Positions 4,854 to 12,502 are shown, counted from the first letter of the stretch. The stretch is 24,000 nt of DNA from Elusimicrobiota bacterium (GCA_031287735.1 JAITSO010000002.1:55572-79571); one strand, 5' to 3'. A program made the numbers and translations. Notes: generated from the sequence alone by a model not told the origin.

Positions 4854-4937
4854 GCTGAGATGGCGAAACGGCAGACGCGCAGGTCTCAGAAGCCTGTCCC
4901 CGAAAGGGCGGTGCGGGTTCAAATCCCGCTCTCAGCA
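4854..4937 (+). tRNA. tRNA-Leu, anticodon CAG, type II with a long variable arm; CCA not encoded
   Basis: Acceptor stem GCTGAGA/TCTCAGC with discriminator A. Anticodon stem CAGGT/GCCTG with loop CTCAGAA, giving U33 followed by CAG. The variable arm is CCCCGAAAGGGCGG-like. The T arm is GCGGG-TTCAAAT-CCCGC. Folded by hand. Confidence 0.9.
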
Positions 4938-4986: not shown

Positions 4987-5001
4987 TTTCCCAACGGGAA
5001 A
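4987..5001 (+). terminator. Small hairpin TTTCCC-AAC-GGGAAA followed by a T-rich tract; possible terminator of the purH/tRNA transcript
   Basis: 6-bp stem with a 3-nt loop, then TTATATTT. The stem is short, so the call is weak. Confidence 0.25.
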
Positions 5002-5187
5002 TTATATTTGTGCTAGCGAAAATAGGACGGTTTAAAGATAAGCTAAATGAATATCGCGGAAGCAAACTTAACTGCAAAATACTTTAAATTTACCGGAATG
5101 TATAAACTATGCAAATAAAACCGCTAAAGAAAGTCATGTTTTGGATTAAAGATTGGCTTGATTTTGGAGGGATAAAAAGGAGGTTTT

Positions 5188-6507
5188 GTGAACGTTAAGT
5201 GTTTTTGTGGAAGTGCAGAAGCTTTCAATGTACCGGTTCCGTCTCAGTGTAGTTCAGGCTGGGTTGGTGTGCAATGTGATATTTGTGGTTATTACAAGTT
5301 TGATAGCAGCTTATATGGAGAAAATTTAGAACAATGGTTTTCAAATGATATGTCACGTGAGTATTCAAAATGGGTGTATTCAGATGAAAAAGAGAATATA
5401 AAGAGAAGAGTAGCTTTATTAAAGCATGAAGTACGGAAACGTGCTTTAGCCTTCGCAGAAAATAATAGAAAACTTTTTAAAAAACATGGAGATGCTGCTA
5501 TAGGAATGGTTGTTGATAAAAATTGTTTCGTAGTAACAAAATCACTTATAGAAGAAATTAAAACCAAACCTTTTCCGACTCCAATGGAACAAATCGATTT
5601 GCTTATAATGTTTTTGGGTGACGAACTGAAAACCCCGGGGACAACCATAAGTTATAACGATAAAAAAATTGAAATATCCACTGCAAGTATTGACGACAAT
5701 AATAAAGTTTGGATTTTAGCGACATCAAAAGAAAAGGATTTAACAATGAACCGGCAACCCAATGTTGTTGAACTTACAATAAGTGGTTGGCAAAAATATG
5801 AAGAGTTAAAAAAAGTTAAAAACAATTCAAAAACTGCATTTATGGCAATGCAATTCAATAATGAAAAATTACAAACTTTTTATGAAAATCATATAAAAAA
5901 AGCAGTGCGCGAAGAAGGTTTTTTTATAGAAAAAGTAGATGAAAACTTTGAAAAAGATGATAATATAAATGTAGACATAATGCTAAAAATACGTAATAGC
6001 AGATTTATGATTTGCGATTTGTCTGATGGAAACTGTGGAGCTTACTGGGAAGCTGGATATGCCAAAGGACTTGGCAAGAAAGTGATTTATATTTACAACG
6101 AATCGCAATGGAAAAAATTAGAACAAGCAAGTGCAGAAGATAAAAAATTAGAACAAGCAAGTGCAGAAGATAAAAAATTAGAACAAGCAAGTGTAGAAGA
6201 TAAAAAATTAGAACAAGCAAGTGCAGAAAATAAAAAATTAGAACAAGCAAGTGTAGAAGATAAAAAATTAGAACAAGCAAGTGCAGAAGATAAAAAATTA
6301 GAACAAGCAAGTGCAGAAAATAAAAAATTAGAACAAGCAAGTGCAGAAGATAAAAAATTAGAACAAGCAAGTGCAGAAGATGAAAAAAACCAAATTCACA
6401 AGCCGCACTTCGATGTTGATAGATTTCGGTTTTTATTTTGGAATGAAAAGAACCCCGAACAGTTTGAAAAACAATTAAAAGACAAAATACAACTTTTGAC
6501 AACATAG
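5188..6507 (+). CDS. Hypothetical multidomain protein: Cys-rich zinc-ribbon-like N-terminus, winged-helix-like middle region, and a nucleoside 2-deoxyribosyltransferase-like (NDT/TIR/SLOG superfamily) C-terminal domain interrupted by a 9 x 10-aa repeat
   Basis: GTG start at 5188 with AGGAGG 5 nt upstream; 439 aa. Cysteines C5, C7, C21, C30 and C33 form a CxC...C...CxxC pattern. Residues 215-303 read TAFMAMQF...NVDIMLKIRNSRFMICDLSDGNCGAYWEAGYAKGLGKKVIYIY. Residues 407-418 read HFDVDRFRFLFW. Together these match the strand/Glu/GK pattern of NDT-family folds. Coding status is confident; the functional call rests on motifs only. Confidence 0.8.
   Translation: MNVKCFCGSAEAFNVPVPSQCSSGWVGVQCDICGYYKFDSSLYGENLEQWFSNDMSREYSKWVYSDEKENIKRRVALLKHEVRKRALAFAENNRKLFKKHGDAAIGMVVDKNCFVVTKSLIEEIKTKPFPTPMEQIDLLIMFLGDELKTPGTTISYNDKKIEISTASIDDNNKVWILATSKEKDLTMNRQPNVVELTISGWQKYEELKKVKNNSKTAFMAMQFNNEKLQTFYENHIKKAVREEGFFIEKVDENFEKDDNINVDIMLKIRNSRFMICDLSDGNCGAYWEAGYAKGLGKKVIYIYNESQWKKLEQASAEDKKLEQASAEDKKLEQASVEDKKLEQASAENKKLEQASVEDKKLEQASAEDKKLEQASAENKKLEQASAEDKKLEQASAEDEKNQIHKPHFDVDRFRFLFWNEKNPEQFEKQLKDKIQLLTT
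6112..6381 (+). repeat. Nine head-to-tail copies of a 30-bp unit AAAAAATTAGAACAAGCAAGTGCAGAAGAT, in frame, encoding (KKLEQASAED)x9
   Basis: Exact 30-nt periodicity is visible in the printed sequence from 6112 to 6381. Copies differ only at two positions: GCA/GTA in copies 3 and 5, and GAT/AAT in copies 4 and 7. A degenerate remnant GAAAAAAAC follows. Confidence 0.98.
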
Positions 6508-6533
6508 GTTGCTTCTGGTTATCACAAAGCAAC
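6508..6533. terminator. Hairpin GTTGCTT-(12 nt)-AAGCAAC in the convergent gap between the 5188-6507 gene and the TPR gene
   Basis: 7-bp perfect stem immediately after the TAG at 6505-6507. There is no strong T-run on either strand, so it is only a weak bidirectional terminator candidate. Confidence 0.25.
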
Positions 6534-6574: not shown

Positions 6575-7591
6575 TTAATAAGGTATGAATTTCATTTTGT
6601 TTTCAAGCATCTCTTCTGCTGCTTCATTGCTTCCTAAAAAAGCAGCTTTTTGAATGTATTCTTTGTACAAACTTTCTTTGCCTATGTGTTTATAAGACAT
6701 TGCTAATATAAAGTTTGCCTTTTCACTCAAAGAGCTGACTTCAACTGCTTTTGCCGCCCAATCTTTTGATTGCACAAAATCTTTTTTGTCATAGTAGAAA
6801 GTTGCTATATTAAGATAAGCTGGGAGGTAAGTTTTATCTACTGCAATAGCTTTTTTGTAATTGGCTAATGCCTCTTCTTCGTTTTCTAATTTTAAATAGA
6901 CTTCTCCGATACTTAAATAATTTCCGGCGAAAGTTTCGCCGTTTTCCTGGGCTTTTTCATAATTATGTAAAGCACTTCTGTATCTTTCTTCTTCCATAAA
7001 AGTGTTGCCTATTAAATGATAGAATCCCGACATATTGAATTTTCCTGTAAAAATAGCTCTTCGGTATATATTTCTAGCATTTTCCAAATCCCCGGCTTTT
7101 CTAAAACACGAGCCGATGAGTAAATAATAATTTTCATCATTAGGGTTTAATTGGATAGCTTTTTGGAGGTGATTGACAGCTTCTAAAAATAAGCTTTTTT
7201 TGCCTGAAGTGTCGCCTTCCTCGTACAAAGATATGGCGATGTAATAGTAATTTTTATCGTCGCTATCATCCATTTCAGCTGCTAAAGAATAATATTTTTG
7301 AGCAGCAGAAAAATTTTCAACTTTCAGCAATGAGTGAGCGTAGTTTTTGACAATTCCAATATCCAAATCTTTCTCATCAAAGTTAACTAACCTGTCAAAA
7401 TATCTAATAGCGTCGTTGTAGTTGCCAAGATCATAGTTTTTGTAGGCTTTTTTAATAAATTTTTCATAAGTCATATTTGAATTATTAACGTGGTATGCTG
7501 CAGCTGCTAAAATAATGTATATGGCTGTAATCGCAATGCTGACTTTTAAATTCTTGCAAGAAAATTCAAAAATATCCTTATTTTTCTTCAT
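6575..7591 (-). CDS. Membrane-anchored tetratricopeptide-repeat (TPR) protein
   Basis: 338-aa ORF with an N-terminal hydrophobic segment VSIAITAIYIILAAAAY. Multiple 34-aa TPR-like units follow, for example YYLLIGSCFRKAGDLENARNIYRRAI and NYLSIGEVYLKLENEEEALANYKKAIAVD. Its ATG overlaps the upstream stop as ATGA at 7588-7591. Confidence 0.85.
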   Translation of the reverse strand: MKKNKDIFEFSCKNLKVSIAITAIYIILAAAAYHVNNSNMTYEKFIKKAYKNYDLGNYNDAIRYFDRLVNFDEKDLDIGIVKNYAHSLLKVENFSAAQKYYSLAAEMDDSDDKNYYYIAISLYEEGDTSGKKSLFLEAVNHLQKAIQLNPNDENYYLLIGSCFRKAGDLENARNIYRRAIFTGKFNMSGFYHLIGNTFMEEERYRSALHNYEKAQENGETFAGNYLSIGEVYLKLENEEEALANYKKAIAVDKTYLPAYLNIATFYYDKKDFVQSKDWAAKAVEVSSLSEKANFILAMSYKHIGKESLYKEYIQKAAFLGSNEAAEEMLENKMKFIPY

Positions 7592-9126: not shown

Positions 9127-9841
9127 CTTCCAGTCCTCCAAACCGGCGTTCTCTTTTTTTAAATTCTTCTATTGCAAATTTTAAGTCTTCCTCTGTAAAT
9201 TCCGGCCAAAACTTTGGTGTTATATGAATTTCAGCATACGCGATTTGCCATAAGAGAAAGTTTGACAAACGCAACTGGCCAGAAGTGCGGATAACTAAAT
9301 CTGGATCCGGCTGGTTTTTGGTGTACAAAAAAGATGAAACAACCGCTTCTGATGGGTTTTTTATTCCTTTCTGCTGCATTTGGGTAAAAGCTGAAATAAG
9401 CTCTTGCCTTGCACCGTAATTCAGGGCTATGTTTAGCTGCAATCCTTTGTTTTTAGATGTGGTTTTGCAGGCATTTGAAACTTCAGAAATTGTTTTTGGA
9501 GGAAATTTAGATAAGTCGCCTAGAATCCTTAATTTAATGCCTTTTTCGTTTAACTCTTTCAATTCTTTGCTTATGAATTTGCTCAATAAAGCAAGCAGTC
9601 CTTTTATTTCACTTTCGGGTCTTTTCCAATTCTCAGATGAAAAAGCATAAAGAGTCAAAACTTCAATTCCAAGCGAACCTGCTGCTTGTACAATTTTTTT
9701 GACAGTTTTGACTCCTTGTCTGTGCCCAAATATTCTTGGTAAATTTCGCATTTTTGCCCATCTGCCATTGCCGTCCATTATAATAGCGATGTGGCGTGGT
9801 AGCAAAATCACTATTTTTGAGAAATAGCACCTGTGGGACAA
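9113..9841 (-). CDS. uppS: Undecaprenyl-diphosphate synthase (cis-isoprenyl transferase)
   Basis: Contains HIAIIMDGNGRWA, FGHRQG, LTLYAFSSENWKRP, RTSGQLRLSNFLLWQIAYAE and other segments diagnostic of UppS. The longest ORF starts with TTG at 9841 and would overlap the ferredoxin gene by 31 nt. An alternative GTG at 9811 overlaps the ferredoxin stop (ATAGTG) and may be the true start. The stop at 9113 overlaps the next gene by 14 nt. Confidence 0.92.
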   Translation of the reverse strand: MSHRCYFSKIVILLPRHIAIIMDGNGRWAKMRNLPRIFGHRQGVKTVKKIVQAAGSLGIEVLTLYAFSSENWKRPESEIKGLLALLSKFISKELKELNEKGIKLRILGDLSKFPPKTISEVSNACKTTSKNKGLQLNIALNYGARQELISAFTQMQQKGIKNPSEAVVSSFLYTKNQPDPDLVIRTSGQLRLSNFLLWQIAYAEIHITPKFWPEFTEEDLKFAIEEFKKRERRFGGLEDESK

Positions 9842-11630: not shown

Positions 11631-11698
11631 TGCTTTAATAAAGAGTAAAAACTGCACAAGGATTGCAAAAAATCAAAGAAAGAAAGGAGTGTTTAGTC

Positions 11699-12502
11699 AT
11701 GAAAAAATTATTTATGAGTTTGTTGTTTATTGGAATTTTTGTAAACAGCACATTTGCCGAGAAAATTATTATGGAAGGTTCTACTACAGTATTGCCGGCA
11801 GCACAAAGAGCAGCAGAAACTTATATGGACAAAAATTCGTCAGCTGATATAACTGTCAGAGGCGGCGGATCAGGCGTTGGAATAAATTCTCTCATAAGCG
11901 GTACCTGCGACATTGCAAATTCATCAAGACAAATAAAAGATTCTGAATTGCAACTGTCGGTCTCAAAAAACAAAAGTCCTAAAAGTTTTGTTATAGCAAT
12001 GGACGGCATAGCTGTAATTGTAAATAATTCTAACAATATATCCACTTTGTCAAAACAGCAAGTGGAAGATATTTATACAGGTAAAGTAACAAATTGGTCG
12101 CAGGTTGGGGGAAAAGATTTAAAAATAGTTGTTGTTTCAAGAGATTCGGCTAGCGGAACTTTTGAAAGTTTTGGCGAACTTGCATTGAATAAGAAAAAAG
12201 TTGTAAATGCCGCTTTAATGCAAGCTTCAAACCGTGCTGTTGTAACATTGATTTCTGAAACTCCGGGAGCTATAGGCTATGTTGGAATAGGCTATTTAAA
12301 TTCCCAAACTAAAGTTTTATCTATAGATGGAGTTAAACCAAGTAAAGAGAACGTTTTAAAAAATAAGTACCCTTATTCAAGACCGCTTTTTATGCTCACT
12401 AATGGCGACCCCAAAGGCGAAATAAAAAAGTTTATTGATTTTGTTTTAAGTACTGACGGGCAGGATTTAATAGAAGAAGAAGGCTTTGTTCCTCTAAAAT
12501 AA
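11699..12502 (+). CDS. pstS: Phosphate ABC transporter substrate-binding protein
   Basis: This is track ORF 11663-12502. I prefer ATG at 11699, which has AAGGAG 9 nt upstream. The signal peptide is MKKLFMSLLFIGIFVNSTFA. Family motifs GSTTVLP, VRGGGSGVGI, SRDSASGT, GAIGYVGIGY and YPYSRPLFM are typical of PstS/PBP-like proteins. Confidence 0.9.
   Translation: MKKLFMSLLFIGIFVNSTFAEKIIMEGSTTVLPAAQRAAETYMDKNSSADITVRGGGSGVGINSLISGTCDIANSSRQIKDSELQLSVSKNKSPKSFVIAMDGIAVIVNNSNNISTLSKQQVEDIYTGKVTNWSQVGGKDLKIVVVSRDSASGTFESFGELALNKKKVVNAALMQASNRAVVTLISETPGAIGYVGIGYLNSQTKVLSIDGVKPSKENVLKNKYPYSRPLFMLTNGDPKGEIKKFIDFVLSTDGQDLIEEEGFVPLK

Follow-up and report, generated by a model that had tools for sequence, protein, structure and literature searches.

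Destruction of NAD+ or of nucleotides by effectors of the nucleoside 2-deoxyribosyltransferase (NDT) and TIR type is a theme central to immunity in bacteria, plants and animals. In enzymes of the NDT superfamily the glutamate found in the GVGYELGRA motif of Rcl is the catalytic nucleophile; it is positioned by a tyrosine of strand beta1 (Y7 in LlNDT, Y24 in DNPH1) and accompanied by a conserved general-acid/ribose-binding aspartate (D72 in LlNDT, D80 in DNPH1, D69 in Rcl). In type II retrons (Eco1/Ec86, Sen2) an NDT-like catalytic domain is paired with a winged-helix domain in one polypeptide (PMC7736814), and these effectors are abortive-infection toxins reported to deplete NAD+ or adenine nucleotides, the depletion of NAD+ being described in PMC13276650. 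Furthermore, the Thoeris VIII effector ThsI is CMP-hydrolase-like (bioRxiv 10.64898/2025.12.03.692087), proteins with a DUF4062 domain are TIR-like NADases (bioRxiv 10.64898/2026.05.01.722283), and NDT domains fused to abortive-infection (Abi) N-terminal domains have been predicted to be toxins (PMC3710099). The gene considered here lies at positions 5188-6507 of a 24,000-nucleotide stretch from an Elusimicrobiota metagenome-assembled genome (MAG; GCA_031287735.1, JAITSO010000002.1:55572-79571), which as a whole is referred to as the window, and an earlier note on this stretch had proposed that it encodes a zinc ribbon and a winged helix joined to an NDT-like domain.

Its product belongs to a family of single-gene proteins which comprise, from N to C terminus, a predicted four-cysteine zinc ribbon, a long helix, a MarR-like winged helix and a domain of NDT/DNPH1 fold, and which are spread patchily over many phyla, with repeated placement in prophages, plasmids and tRNA-integrated islands and beside restriction or defence genes. 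It is a distinct family inside the NDT/DNPH1 superfamily with an HFD motif of its own, and its NDT-like domain is probably an N-glycosidase. The complete interpretation, in which the protein would be a stand-alone sensor-effector N-glycosidase and thus a conflict module in itself, is tentatively favoured, at a strength that stops somewhat short of probable. The wider proposal, that the family with the motifs GAYWEAG and HFD constitutes an unrecognised single-gene immune system, is possible and more doubtful: here an auto-inhibited N-glycosidase, its hypervariable N-terminal module sensing some component of a phage or plasmid, would abort infection by destroying NAD+ or a nucleotide or by depurinating nucleic acid, and the copies residing in etf operons of Planctomycetota would have been domesticated for a metabolic or redox role. 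The parts of the gene on which these interpretations are based are the following.

5188..6507, plus strand: complete, stand-alone open reading frame (ORF) with a GTG start, 439 aa (ORF calling)
5188..5322, plus strand: predicted zinc ribbon, aa 1-45, with four cysteines (C5, C7, C30, C33) and two beta-hairpins (alignment, AlphaFold2)
5323..5538, plus strand: linker, aa 46-117, with a long helix at aa 64-100 (AlphaFold2)
5539..5826, plus strand: MarR-like winged helix-turn-helix (wHTH), aa 118-213 (AlphaFold2, Foldseek)
5827..6099, plus strand: core of the NDT/DNPH1-like Rossmannoid domain, aa 214-304 (Foldseek, profile)
6049..6051, plus strand: codon of E288, the predicted catalytic nucleophile (invariance, alignment with Rcl)
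6112..6388, plus strand: in-frame tandem repeat, 30 bp x 9.2 copies, unit KKLEQASAED (Tandem Repeats Finder score 517, 96% matches; repeat family D1)
6397..6504, plus strand: C-terminal part of the NDT-like domain, aa 404-439, with the HFD motif, W418 and the final helix (alignment, AlphaFold2)
6406-6414, plus strand: codons of the H407-F408-D409 motif (alignment)

With respect to the catalytic domain, the core elements are strand beta1 (AFMAM), strand beta3 (FMICDLS), the helix GAYWEAGYAKGLG and strand beta4 (VIYIY), and the motifs quoted in the earlier note, namely TAFMAMQF, ...CDLSDGNCGAYWEAGYAKGLGKKVIYIY and HFDVDRFRFLFW, are present as quoted. In a full AlphaFold2 (AF2) model for which 106 homologues served as input (mean predicted local distance difference test, pLDDT, 85.6), residues 214-304 and 404-439 together form a five-stranded alpha/beta domain. 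Its best matches in the PDB according to Foldseek are 8pqt (an NDT), 9i9q (human DNPH1) and 4jen (the cytidine monophosphate (CMP) N-glycosidase BcmB), with a probability of 1.0, a TM-target of 0.49-0.59 and a root-mean-square deviation (rmsd) of ~3 A over ~90-104 columns, followed at lower ranks by the TIR domains of SPARTA (short prokaryotic Argonaute, TIR-APAZ), TcpB, SfSTING and TLR1; the NDT-like domain that had been proposed is therefore recovered with NDT, DNPH1 and BcmB first and the TIRs next. In a viral structure library, models of CMP hydrolases and NDTs likewise come first. When compared to the whole PDB, a profile of the C-terminal domain found Rcl/DNPH1 as its sole matches, the segment GaYWEAGyaeGlgkkViY being aligned to GVGYELGRAVALGKPILC of Rcl/DNPH1, while the full-length profile gave chance-level matches only against PDB sequences.

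Residue conservation was assessed in an alignment of the window protein with its relatives (n=106). E288 is invariant in 106 of 106, and the hidden Markov model alignment sets it on the glutamate of the Rcl motif GVGYELGRA, so that its earlier designation as a candidate catalytic residue has gained in weight. It resides in the nucleophile motif G-x-x-x-E-x-G-x-A, which is continued, as in DNPH1 and the NDTs, by GK-x-V/I, and the chemistry to be expected from this likeness would be cleavage of an N-glycosidic bond via a covalent ribosyl-glutamate intermediate. In total twelve columns are invariant (G200, F218, A220, G284, Y286, W287, E288, A289, G290, V299, H407 and D409), and F408 and W418 reach a conservation of at least 99%. 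The mean column entropy is only 1.45 bits in the catalytic domain as opposed to 2.80 bits in helices H2-H3 of the wHTH. Together with NDTs (PF05014, clan Nribosyltransf), DNPH1/Rcl, MilB and BcmB the domain thus has the Rossmannoid fold in common, these being its best structural matches, and it differs from DNPH1 and the NDTs by its invariant Y286-W287 and H407-F-D409, by its fusion to a zinc ribbon and a wHTH, and by a patchy, mobile-element-linked instead of a metabolic distribution.

The TIR and TIR-like NADases, such as the TIR effectors of the cyclic-oligonucleotide-based antiphage signalling system (CBASS; Cap12) and of Pycsar, the TIR-APAZ proteins of SPARTA and the DUF4062 'Swarozyc' proteins, belong to the same Rossmannoid superfamily and are the second-tier structural matches. 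By analogy, they may also share the design of a sensor fused to a domain that cleaves glycosidic bonds once assembly has activated it. In contrast to them, the glutamate motif is of NDT type and not of TIR type, NDT and DNPH1 rank above the TIRs, and there is no cyclase, Argonaute or portal-sensing context. The Pfam models TIR, TIR_2 and DUF4062 do not match the window protein at E<=1; the PADLOC model PDLC00733 (CBASS 'Effector TIR') gives a weak match to the window protein (E=5.8e-5) and to 62 of 106 relatives (best 1.6e-8).

The domain is interrupted by the tandem repeat, which had been overlooked when residues 215-439 were first read. The expansion spans 277 bp and encodes residues 309-401 in the loop that connects beta4 (VIYIY) with the HFD motif, which accounts for the gap left in the earlier note between residues 215-303 and 407-418. 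Accordingly, the spacing from the catalytic glutamate to HFD is 119 aa in the window protein versus 19-47 aa in 354 other family proteins, and none of the 356 family proteins except the window protein has the insertion. The prediction places it as an antiparallel helical hairpin (residues 305-354 and 370-400) with a low-confidence tip (356-368) that points away from the core. A predicted helical hairpin of 92 residues, encoded by the repeat, has thus been gained recently in a surface loop of the catalytic domain, since single-base changes between the repeat units are few; its copy number is approximate, as it derives from a short-read MAG assembly. In the same loop, the closest relatives (P0002-P0004, 42-51% identity) carry a short CxxC insert (KKCVECGK or KKCEKCGK).

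It might be argued that the window copy, as opposed to the family, is an inactive relic, a decaying gene in which a repeat has expanded in the catalytic domain after the surrounding island was lost. This would be consistent with the uniqueness of the insertion, with its position between beta4 and the invariant HFD, with the loss of any integrase or defence neighbour and with the uncertain copy number. On the other hand, the ORF is unbroken, with a repeat that keeps the frame (multiples of 30 bp), all twelve invariant residues of the family are kept, the ribosome-binding site is strong, the family already shows lengths between 19 and 47 aa for the host loop, and the insert is modelled as an external hairpin that leaves the core undisturbed. 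A relic is for these reasons considered very improbable.

The N-terminal module is far more variable. Of the window protein's cysteines (5, 7, 21, 30 and 33), all of which the earlier note had counted as a set, C5, C7, C30 and C33 are kept in 79-85 of 106 relatives, almost all others being gapped there, whereas C21 is not conserved. Among the 206 family proteins with a length of 300 aa or more, 181 have two Cx(1-4)C pairs near the N terminus, AF2 places strands at 25-30 and 34-39, and a few relatives match the Pfam zinc-ribbon models Lar_restr_allev and Zn_ribbon_LysW weakly. Residues 1-45 are therefore predicted to be a zinc ribbon consisting of two cysteine pairs and consecutive beta-hairpins. 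The subsequent linker, which varies in length between 36 and 72 aa across the family and has an entropy of 2.85 bits, contains the long helix that could drive dimerisation.

The winged helix claimed earlier is supported by structure prediction. A second AF2 model comprising residues 1-214 has a pLDDT of 88 and a pTM (predicted template modelling score) of 0.84, with a pLDDT of ~95-98 over the wHTH itself, whose elements are H1 (132-147), H2 (158-164), H3 (170-182) and a wing (186-196, strands 186-190 and 193-196), directly followed by the conserved helix GWQKYEELKK. Foldseek retrieved the MarR-family proteins HpaR, NadR, MexR and SarZ, the DNA-binding domains of CRP/FNR and SSV1 F-93; NadR (5aip) superimposes with an rmsd of 2.6 A over 80 columns at a probability of 1.0, other matches being 7el2, 1lnw and 3hsr, and the E-values are weak (>=0.15). 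G200 and W201 are invariant or almost so. The H2-H3 region, in turn, is the most variable segment of all, ranging from 26 to 88 aa in length; the median net charge amounts to -2 here and to +1 in the wing plus H4, no basic residue is conserved, and the most conserved wHTH residues (PTPxEQ and GWxxYEEL) fall outside the DNA-reading helix. The term 'DNA sensor' therefore finds no support as it stands, with a wHTH that is not basic and a recognition-helix region that is the least conserved. One protein of 310 aa from a Joint Genome Institute (JGI) metagenome, P0101, carries a DUF559 (Vsr-like) and an MTES_1575 endonuclease in place of the zinc-ribbon/wHTH module and retains the GWxxxEELKK helix and the NDT-like domain.

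These features also bear on two other functions that might be assigned to the protein. According to the first, it would be a one-component regulator resembling Rex, in which the NDT-like domain binds a nucleotide or NAD(H) without cleaving it, while transcription is controlled through DNA binding by the wHTH and zinc ribbon. Rex has a like architecture of a wHTH and a nucleotide-binding alpha/beta domain, and in clostridia it regulates etf/acyl-CoA dehydrogenase operons, an operon of this kind also being the place of the Planctomycetota members of the family; moreover, the wHTH has a MarR/CRP-type fold, and the invariant acidic and histidine residues could equally bind a ligand. Yet a regulator would hardly be expected to have its recognition helix and wing as the least conserved region, without conserved basic residues and at a net charge of about -2 to +1, and its conserved wHTH residues outside the DNA-reading helix. 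The exchange of the N-terminal module for a DUF559/MTES endonuclease in P0101 fits an effector better, and the invariant glutamate lies exactly in the NDT nucleophile motif. A Rex-like regulator is accordingly considered clearly unlikely.

According to the second, the NDT-like domain would be toxic by stripping DNA or RNA of bases, through ricin-like depurination or base exchange, with the zinc ribbon and wHTH holding the polymer. Binding of nucleic acids is common among zinc ribbons and wHTH domains, P0101 joins the domain to a Vsr-like DNA endonuclease, and such an activity was proposed for NDT domains with Abi N-terminal modules by Anantharaman et al. 2013 (PMC3710099). The AbiJ-NTD1-NDT fusions described there follow the same predicted plan, a variable N-terminal target-recognition domain and a C-terminal NDT toxin; they differ from the window protein in their N-terminal domain, for which it has no AbiJ_NTD Pfam match, and are likewise experimentally uncharacterised. 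The design of a sensor plus an NDT toxin is thus one that was predicted in 2013 for other N-terminal domains (PMC3710099) and has been validated in principle by the retron NDT effectors. Against the polymer as substrate stands the fact that the characterised enzymes of the superfamily (retron-Eco1, DNPH1, MilB and BcmB) all act on small molecules and none on polymers, and that the wHTH surface is not basic, which makes this alternative marginally more improbable than the regulator.

How a sensor-effector N-glycosidase of this kind might work can be outlined as follows. Until a trigger appears, the variable N-terminal module of zinc ribbon, helix and wHTH would restrain the enzyme in an inactive or monomeric state; the trigger might be a protein of a phage or mobile element or a nucleic acid, and its binding would lead to dimerisation or oligomerisation and thereby switch on the NDT-like domain. 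The active sites of the NDT family are completed across a dimer interface, and immune effectors such as the retron-Eco1 filaments, the TIR assemblies and a DUF4062 protein with a phage portal are activated by assembly; it is therefore proposed that the N-terminal module controls oligomerisation. E288 would then attack C1' of the ribose or deoxyribose and cut the N-glycosidic bond, F218, Y286, W287, H407 and D409 being candidates for base stacking and ribose binding. The likeliest substrates would be NAD+, in analogy to the NDT-like effectors of retron-Eco1 and the TIR-like NADases, or a (deoxy)nucleoside phosphate as for DNPH1, MilB and BcmB, and depletion of the metabolite would arrest the infected cell.

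That the ORF does not exist by chance follows from its homologues, the best of which matches the window protein at E=7e-66, and from the 4,914 cluster representatives at E<=1e-3 (1,529 at E<=1e-10) found by phmmer among 1.84 billion representatives of 50%-identity clusters. The median length of family proteins is 315 aa. In a scan of one genome per species, relatives were present in 448 of 185,579 genomes (0.24%), distributed over Elusimicrobiota, Planctomycetota, Hydrogenedentota, Pseudomonadota, Nitrospirota, Bacteroidota, Verrucomicrobiota, Myxococcota and other phyla. The only names found for family members are 'hypothetical protein' and 'nucleoside 2-deoxyribosyltransferase', and in PHROGs the family is phrog_16139 of 'unknown function'. 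The window protein itself is MDR3111636.1 ('hypothetical protein', Elusimicrobiota MAG), encoded on a contig of 90 kb, and the annotations of NCBI and JGI agree on this product.

The neighbourhoods of relatives were surveyed at 74 non-redundant loci, the 703 neighbours within six genes falling into 633 clusters; neighbour ORFs were called by a simple longest-ORF script, so that the counts are approximate. The largest cluster is represented in 8 of 74 loci, and the recurrent clusters reflect lineage-specific synteny with electron transfer flavoprotein (ETF) and acyl-CoA dehydrogenase (ACAD) genes, a few integrases and Type I restriction-modification (R-M) systems. Since no partner gene is conserved across the 74 loci, the gene is best regarded as a single-gene unit. 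Mobile surroundings are encountered repeatedly: one copy is flanked by phage tail genes and an integrase at a prophage end, one lies near a serine recombinase and one in an island with an integrase, VapE and a ParB-methyltransferase, while a copy in Endomicrobium adjoins a Gp49/HI1420 toxin-antitoxin pair and an AAA_21 ATPase. In Elusimicrobiaceae, one locus has the order tRNA-Glu, gene, Fic/DOC and tyrosine integrase and another copy adjoins HsdM and HsdS. In the survey, Type I R-M genes are directly adjacent in 3 loci.

On plasmids of cultured bacteria, the Hymenobacter copy is accompanied by a recombinase, a NACHT protein and an integrase, the Aliarcobacter copy by TIR proteins and a protein with a TRAF-binding domain, the Bradyrhizobium copy by a ThiF/E1 enzyme and large helicases, and the copy on megaplasmids of Bacillus mycoides by ArpU and an integrase. 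In Leptospira interrogans, plasmid p4 (NZ_CP043897.1, L097 4994-9806), a phage-plasmid with baseplate genes, carries a co-directional trio of a SEFIR protein, the NDT-like homologue and a 772-aa S-adenosylmethionine-dependent methyltransferase, which could represent a compact defence cluster in a cultivable pathogen. The homologues of B. mycoides and L. interrogans have the accessions WP_078178485.1 and WP_192505173.1, respectively. Plasmid pISO32_1 of Hydrogenimonas (L100 1200-4942) encodes on one strand the homologue, an ATP-binding protein, a hypothetical protein and an HNH endonuclease, an arrangement that resembles Septu.

Among the Elusimicrobiota, a tRNA gene is situated within ~320 bp upstream of the gene in five of six loci, the window included, and these tRNAs differ by locus (Leu; Arg, a tRNA-Pro lying on the opposite side; Ser; Arg; and Glu). 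According to a rough estimate, such proximity is far above chance for small genomes with about 45 tRNAs. An integrase is kept in only one of the five tRNA-linked loci (L031). A shared element was also sought in the spacers between tRNA and gene of the five loci, and nothing except AT-richness and a ribosome-binding site was found. The tRNA genes, together with the other features next to the gene in the window, are located as follows.

4854-4937, plus strand (window): tRNA-Leu(CAG) (ARAGORN; Rfam tRNA 57.6 bits)
4987-5001 (window): terminator-like hairpin 3' of tRNA-Leu
5178..5183, plus strand (window): Shine-Dalgarno sequence AGGAGG, 4 nt ahead of the GTG (direct sequence reading)
6575-7591, minus strand (window): gene for a tetratricopeptide repeat (TPR) protein, 338 aa, with an N-terminal membrane anchor, convergent with ORF 5188-6507 (window annotation)
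9597-9673 and 11693-11766 (L003): tRNA genes
9489-9579 (L007): tRNA gene
9250-9321 (L039): tRNA gene
1607-1682 (L031): tRNA gene

In the window, the 439-aa ORF with its GTG start and AGGAGG, the adjoining tRNA-Leu and the convergent next gene were all found as first described, the gap between tRNA and ORF being 250 bp. Because of the hairpin after the tRNA and the convergent gene downstream, the ORF is very likely transcribed alone. The remaining genes of the window are all housekeeping genes, namely those for a class-V aminotransferase, purH, a beta-CASP metallo-beta-lactamase RNase, uppS, a porin, pstS-C-A-B, recO, a nucleotidyl transferase, a short-chain dehydrogenase/reductase, comEC, uvrD/pcrA and an aminotransferase, in agreement with the statement that the gene is the only non-housekeeping one in the window. 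With a G+C content of ~31% as compared to ~34% for the window, composition does not set it apart. The tRNA, which lies outside the protein-coding gene, may mark an integration hot-spot, and the window copy, standing alone 250 bp past tRNA-Leu and without an integrase, is probably the remnant cargo of an island.

An integration scar was searched for around the gene, and no att-like direct repeat of the tRNA 3' end was found, the repeats present being the internal array or short chance pairs. Three further candidates were rejected: an antisense ORF at 6005-6532 (175 aa) is a by-product of the tandem repeat, and the JGI name 'YjbI with pentapeptide repeats' as well as an NCBIfam DotG/IcmE match are artefacts of the KKLEQASAED repeat. 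PurH relatives with 75-79% identity in Endomicrobiia have different unknown genes 3' of purH and no tRNA there, and synteny with the nearest PurH-bearing genomes is too broken for an empty site to be scored. The region 3' of purH, which holds different unannotated genes in each of three relatives, looks variable across Endomicrobiia, and in Endomicrobium CP009498.1 (L094 2157-6329) a MazE/PIN toxin-antitoxin pair and two SUKH/SMI1 immunity-type proteins are encoded upstream of purH.

This gene content also addresses the question of whether the protein might be part of a known multi-gene system, i.e., a type II retron, Thoeris VIII with ThsI, a TIR effector of CBASS or Pycsar, or PsyrA. Such an assignment could draw upon the weak PADLOC match to a CBASS 'Effector TIR', upon the pairing of an NDT-like domain with a wHTH, which recalls type II retron effectors, and upon the TPR gene downstream, as ThsI carries a TPR domain. 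It is contradicted by the neighbourhood data, in that there is no partner conserved over the 74 loci, and is regarded as extremely improbable. The ORFs of the window include no reverse transcriptase, TIR, CD-NTase or RecQ gene, and an Rfam scan of the window found the tRNA alone and neither a retron msr-msd nor a riboswitch. In retrons, moreover, the NDT domain is N-terminal, whereas here the wHTH (aa 118-213) precedes the NDT-like domain (aa 214-439), so that the order of domains is the opposite; retron effectors have no zinc ribbon, a reverse transcriptase or msr-msd partner (the retron non-coding RNA) is missing from the window, and no retron effector was matched by sequence in the PDB profile search, nor was any retron structure among the top 50 Foldseek matches.

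ThsI, for its part, is an NDT-superfamily defence effector with a presumed role in manipulating nucleotide pools (bioRxiv 10.64898/2025.12.03.692087), but it needs an adjacent TIR signal generator and has its TPR sensor fused to it, whereas the window has no TIR gene and the protein a sensor module of zinc ribbon and wHTH. The TPR gene of the window is separate, convergent and membrane-anchored and is not kept beside relatives; its adjacency to the NDT-like gene is probably coincidental. As distinct from PsyrTA, CBASS and Pycsar, neither a RecQ-like helicase (PsyrT) nor a nucleotide cyclase is present in the window or recurs near relatives. The earlier remark that the gene corresponds to no named system agrees with these data, the weak TIR-effector match in PADLOC being the only one and no partner gene being conserved.

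Several observations nevertheless weigh against a sensor-effector N-glycosidase with a role in conflict, both at the level of the enzyme and at that of its surroundings. The Foldseek E-values of the catalytic domain are just ~1e-2, and PF05014 matches aa 256-308 only, with E=7e-4 and 20.2 bits as against a gathering cutoff of 28.8, similarly weak matches being obtained for 93 of 106 relatives (best 9.3e-7); the expected kinship to Pfam models was hence seen for PF05014 beneath its cutoff and not seen for TIR and DUF4062. The general-acid aspartate of DNPH1 and the NDTs is not conserved in the family: the aspartate column of Rcl aligns with position 264, which is L, I or M, while at the nearby position 261 there are 59 sequences with D, 42 with H and 4 with N (N in the window protein), and position 277, although always D or E, is a different site. 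Besides, the invariant F218 of the beta1 motif T-A-F218-M-A-M appears to take the place of the beta1 tyrosine of the NDTs, as judged from the motifs and not from a tool alignment.

On the side of context, the window copy has no integrase, att-like repeats or neighbouring defence gene, viral members are few (5 loci in IMG/VR), GenBank phages contain no match to the family, and the literature searched holds no biochemical, phage-challenge or other characterisation of any member. Immediate and second neighbours on MAG chromosomes are mostly ordinary metabolic or housekeeping genes, with R-M or integrase genes within two genes in just ~5-10% of loci. In particular, six Planctomycetota MAGs (Phycisphaerae, Sedimentisphaerales and Pirellulales; L009 4475-7930, L034, L064, L070, L081 and L082) carry the gene co-directionally between etfB and etfA, with genes for an acyl-CoA dehydrogenase and a haloacid dehalogenase (HAD) phosphatase downstream. 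These homologues are mutually closest, with 51-71% identity as compared to 69-87% for EtfB, and as their divergence tracks that of EtfB a long-term vertical inheritance in a metabolic operon is indicated. A 147-aa ORF beside the gene in L009 (orf142) was treated as a spurious ORF of a GC-rich genome.

It could thus be held that the protein is a housekeeping N-glycosidase similar to DNPH1 which clears non-canonical or surplus (deoxy)nucleotides or feeds salvage, its N-terminal module serving merely for regulation or localisation and no conflict role being involved. The nearest solved relatives by profile are Rcl/DNPH1, the top structural matches (NDT, DNPH1 and BcmB) are metabolic, and the window copy lies near the purine biosynthesis gene purH, to which the mostly housekeeping chromosomal loci and the vertical inheritance in the etfB-etfA-acyl-CoA dehydrogenase cluster may be added. 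However, occurrence in only 0.24% of species genomes across many phyla is not a core-metabolic pattern, the adjacency to purH is not conserved in relatives, the sensor-like N-terminal module is hypervariable, and the gene recurs on plasmids, in prophages and in tRNA islands next to SEFIR, NACHT, TIR, R-M, Fic and integrase genes. A housekeeping role is consequently deemed unlikely, and the nucleotide-targeting conflict module of the earlier note remains plausible, being in accord with the plasmid, prophage and Elusimicrobiota contexts and at odds with the housekeeping surroundings of most chromosomal relatives and with the vertical Planctomycetota lineage in etfB-etfA.

Taken by itself, the window of this Elusimicrobiota (Endomicrobiia-like) MAG contains housekeeping genes and, isolated among them, one accessory gene. 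What is known to date of NDT-type effectors in defence is confined to subordinate parts of retrons and of Thoeris VIII, so that the favoured interpretation, if true, would add a widespread, partner-free NDT-fold effector with a built-in sensor. Under the wider proposal, the stand-alone NADase sensors of TIR, SIR2 and DUF4062 type would gain a counterpart with an NDT fold. For a specialist this would come as no great surprise, and yet the family is large and experimentally accessible, with cultivable members on the megaplasmids of Bacillus mycoides, on the phage-plasmid of Leptospira interrogans and in Bradyrhizobium. E288 provides a defined catalytic candidate, the role of the family-specific HFD motif could reveal the substrate, and the Planctomycetota lineage in etfB-etfA offers a natural test of whether such modules become recruited into core metabolism.

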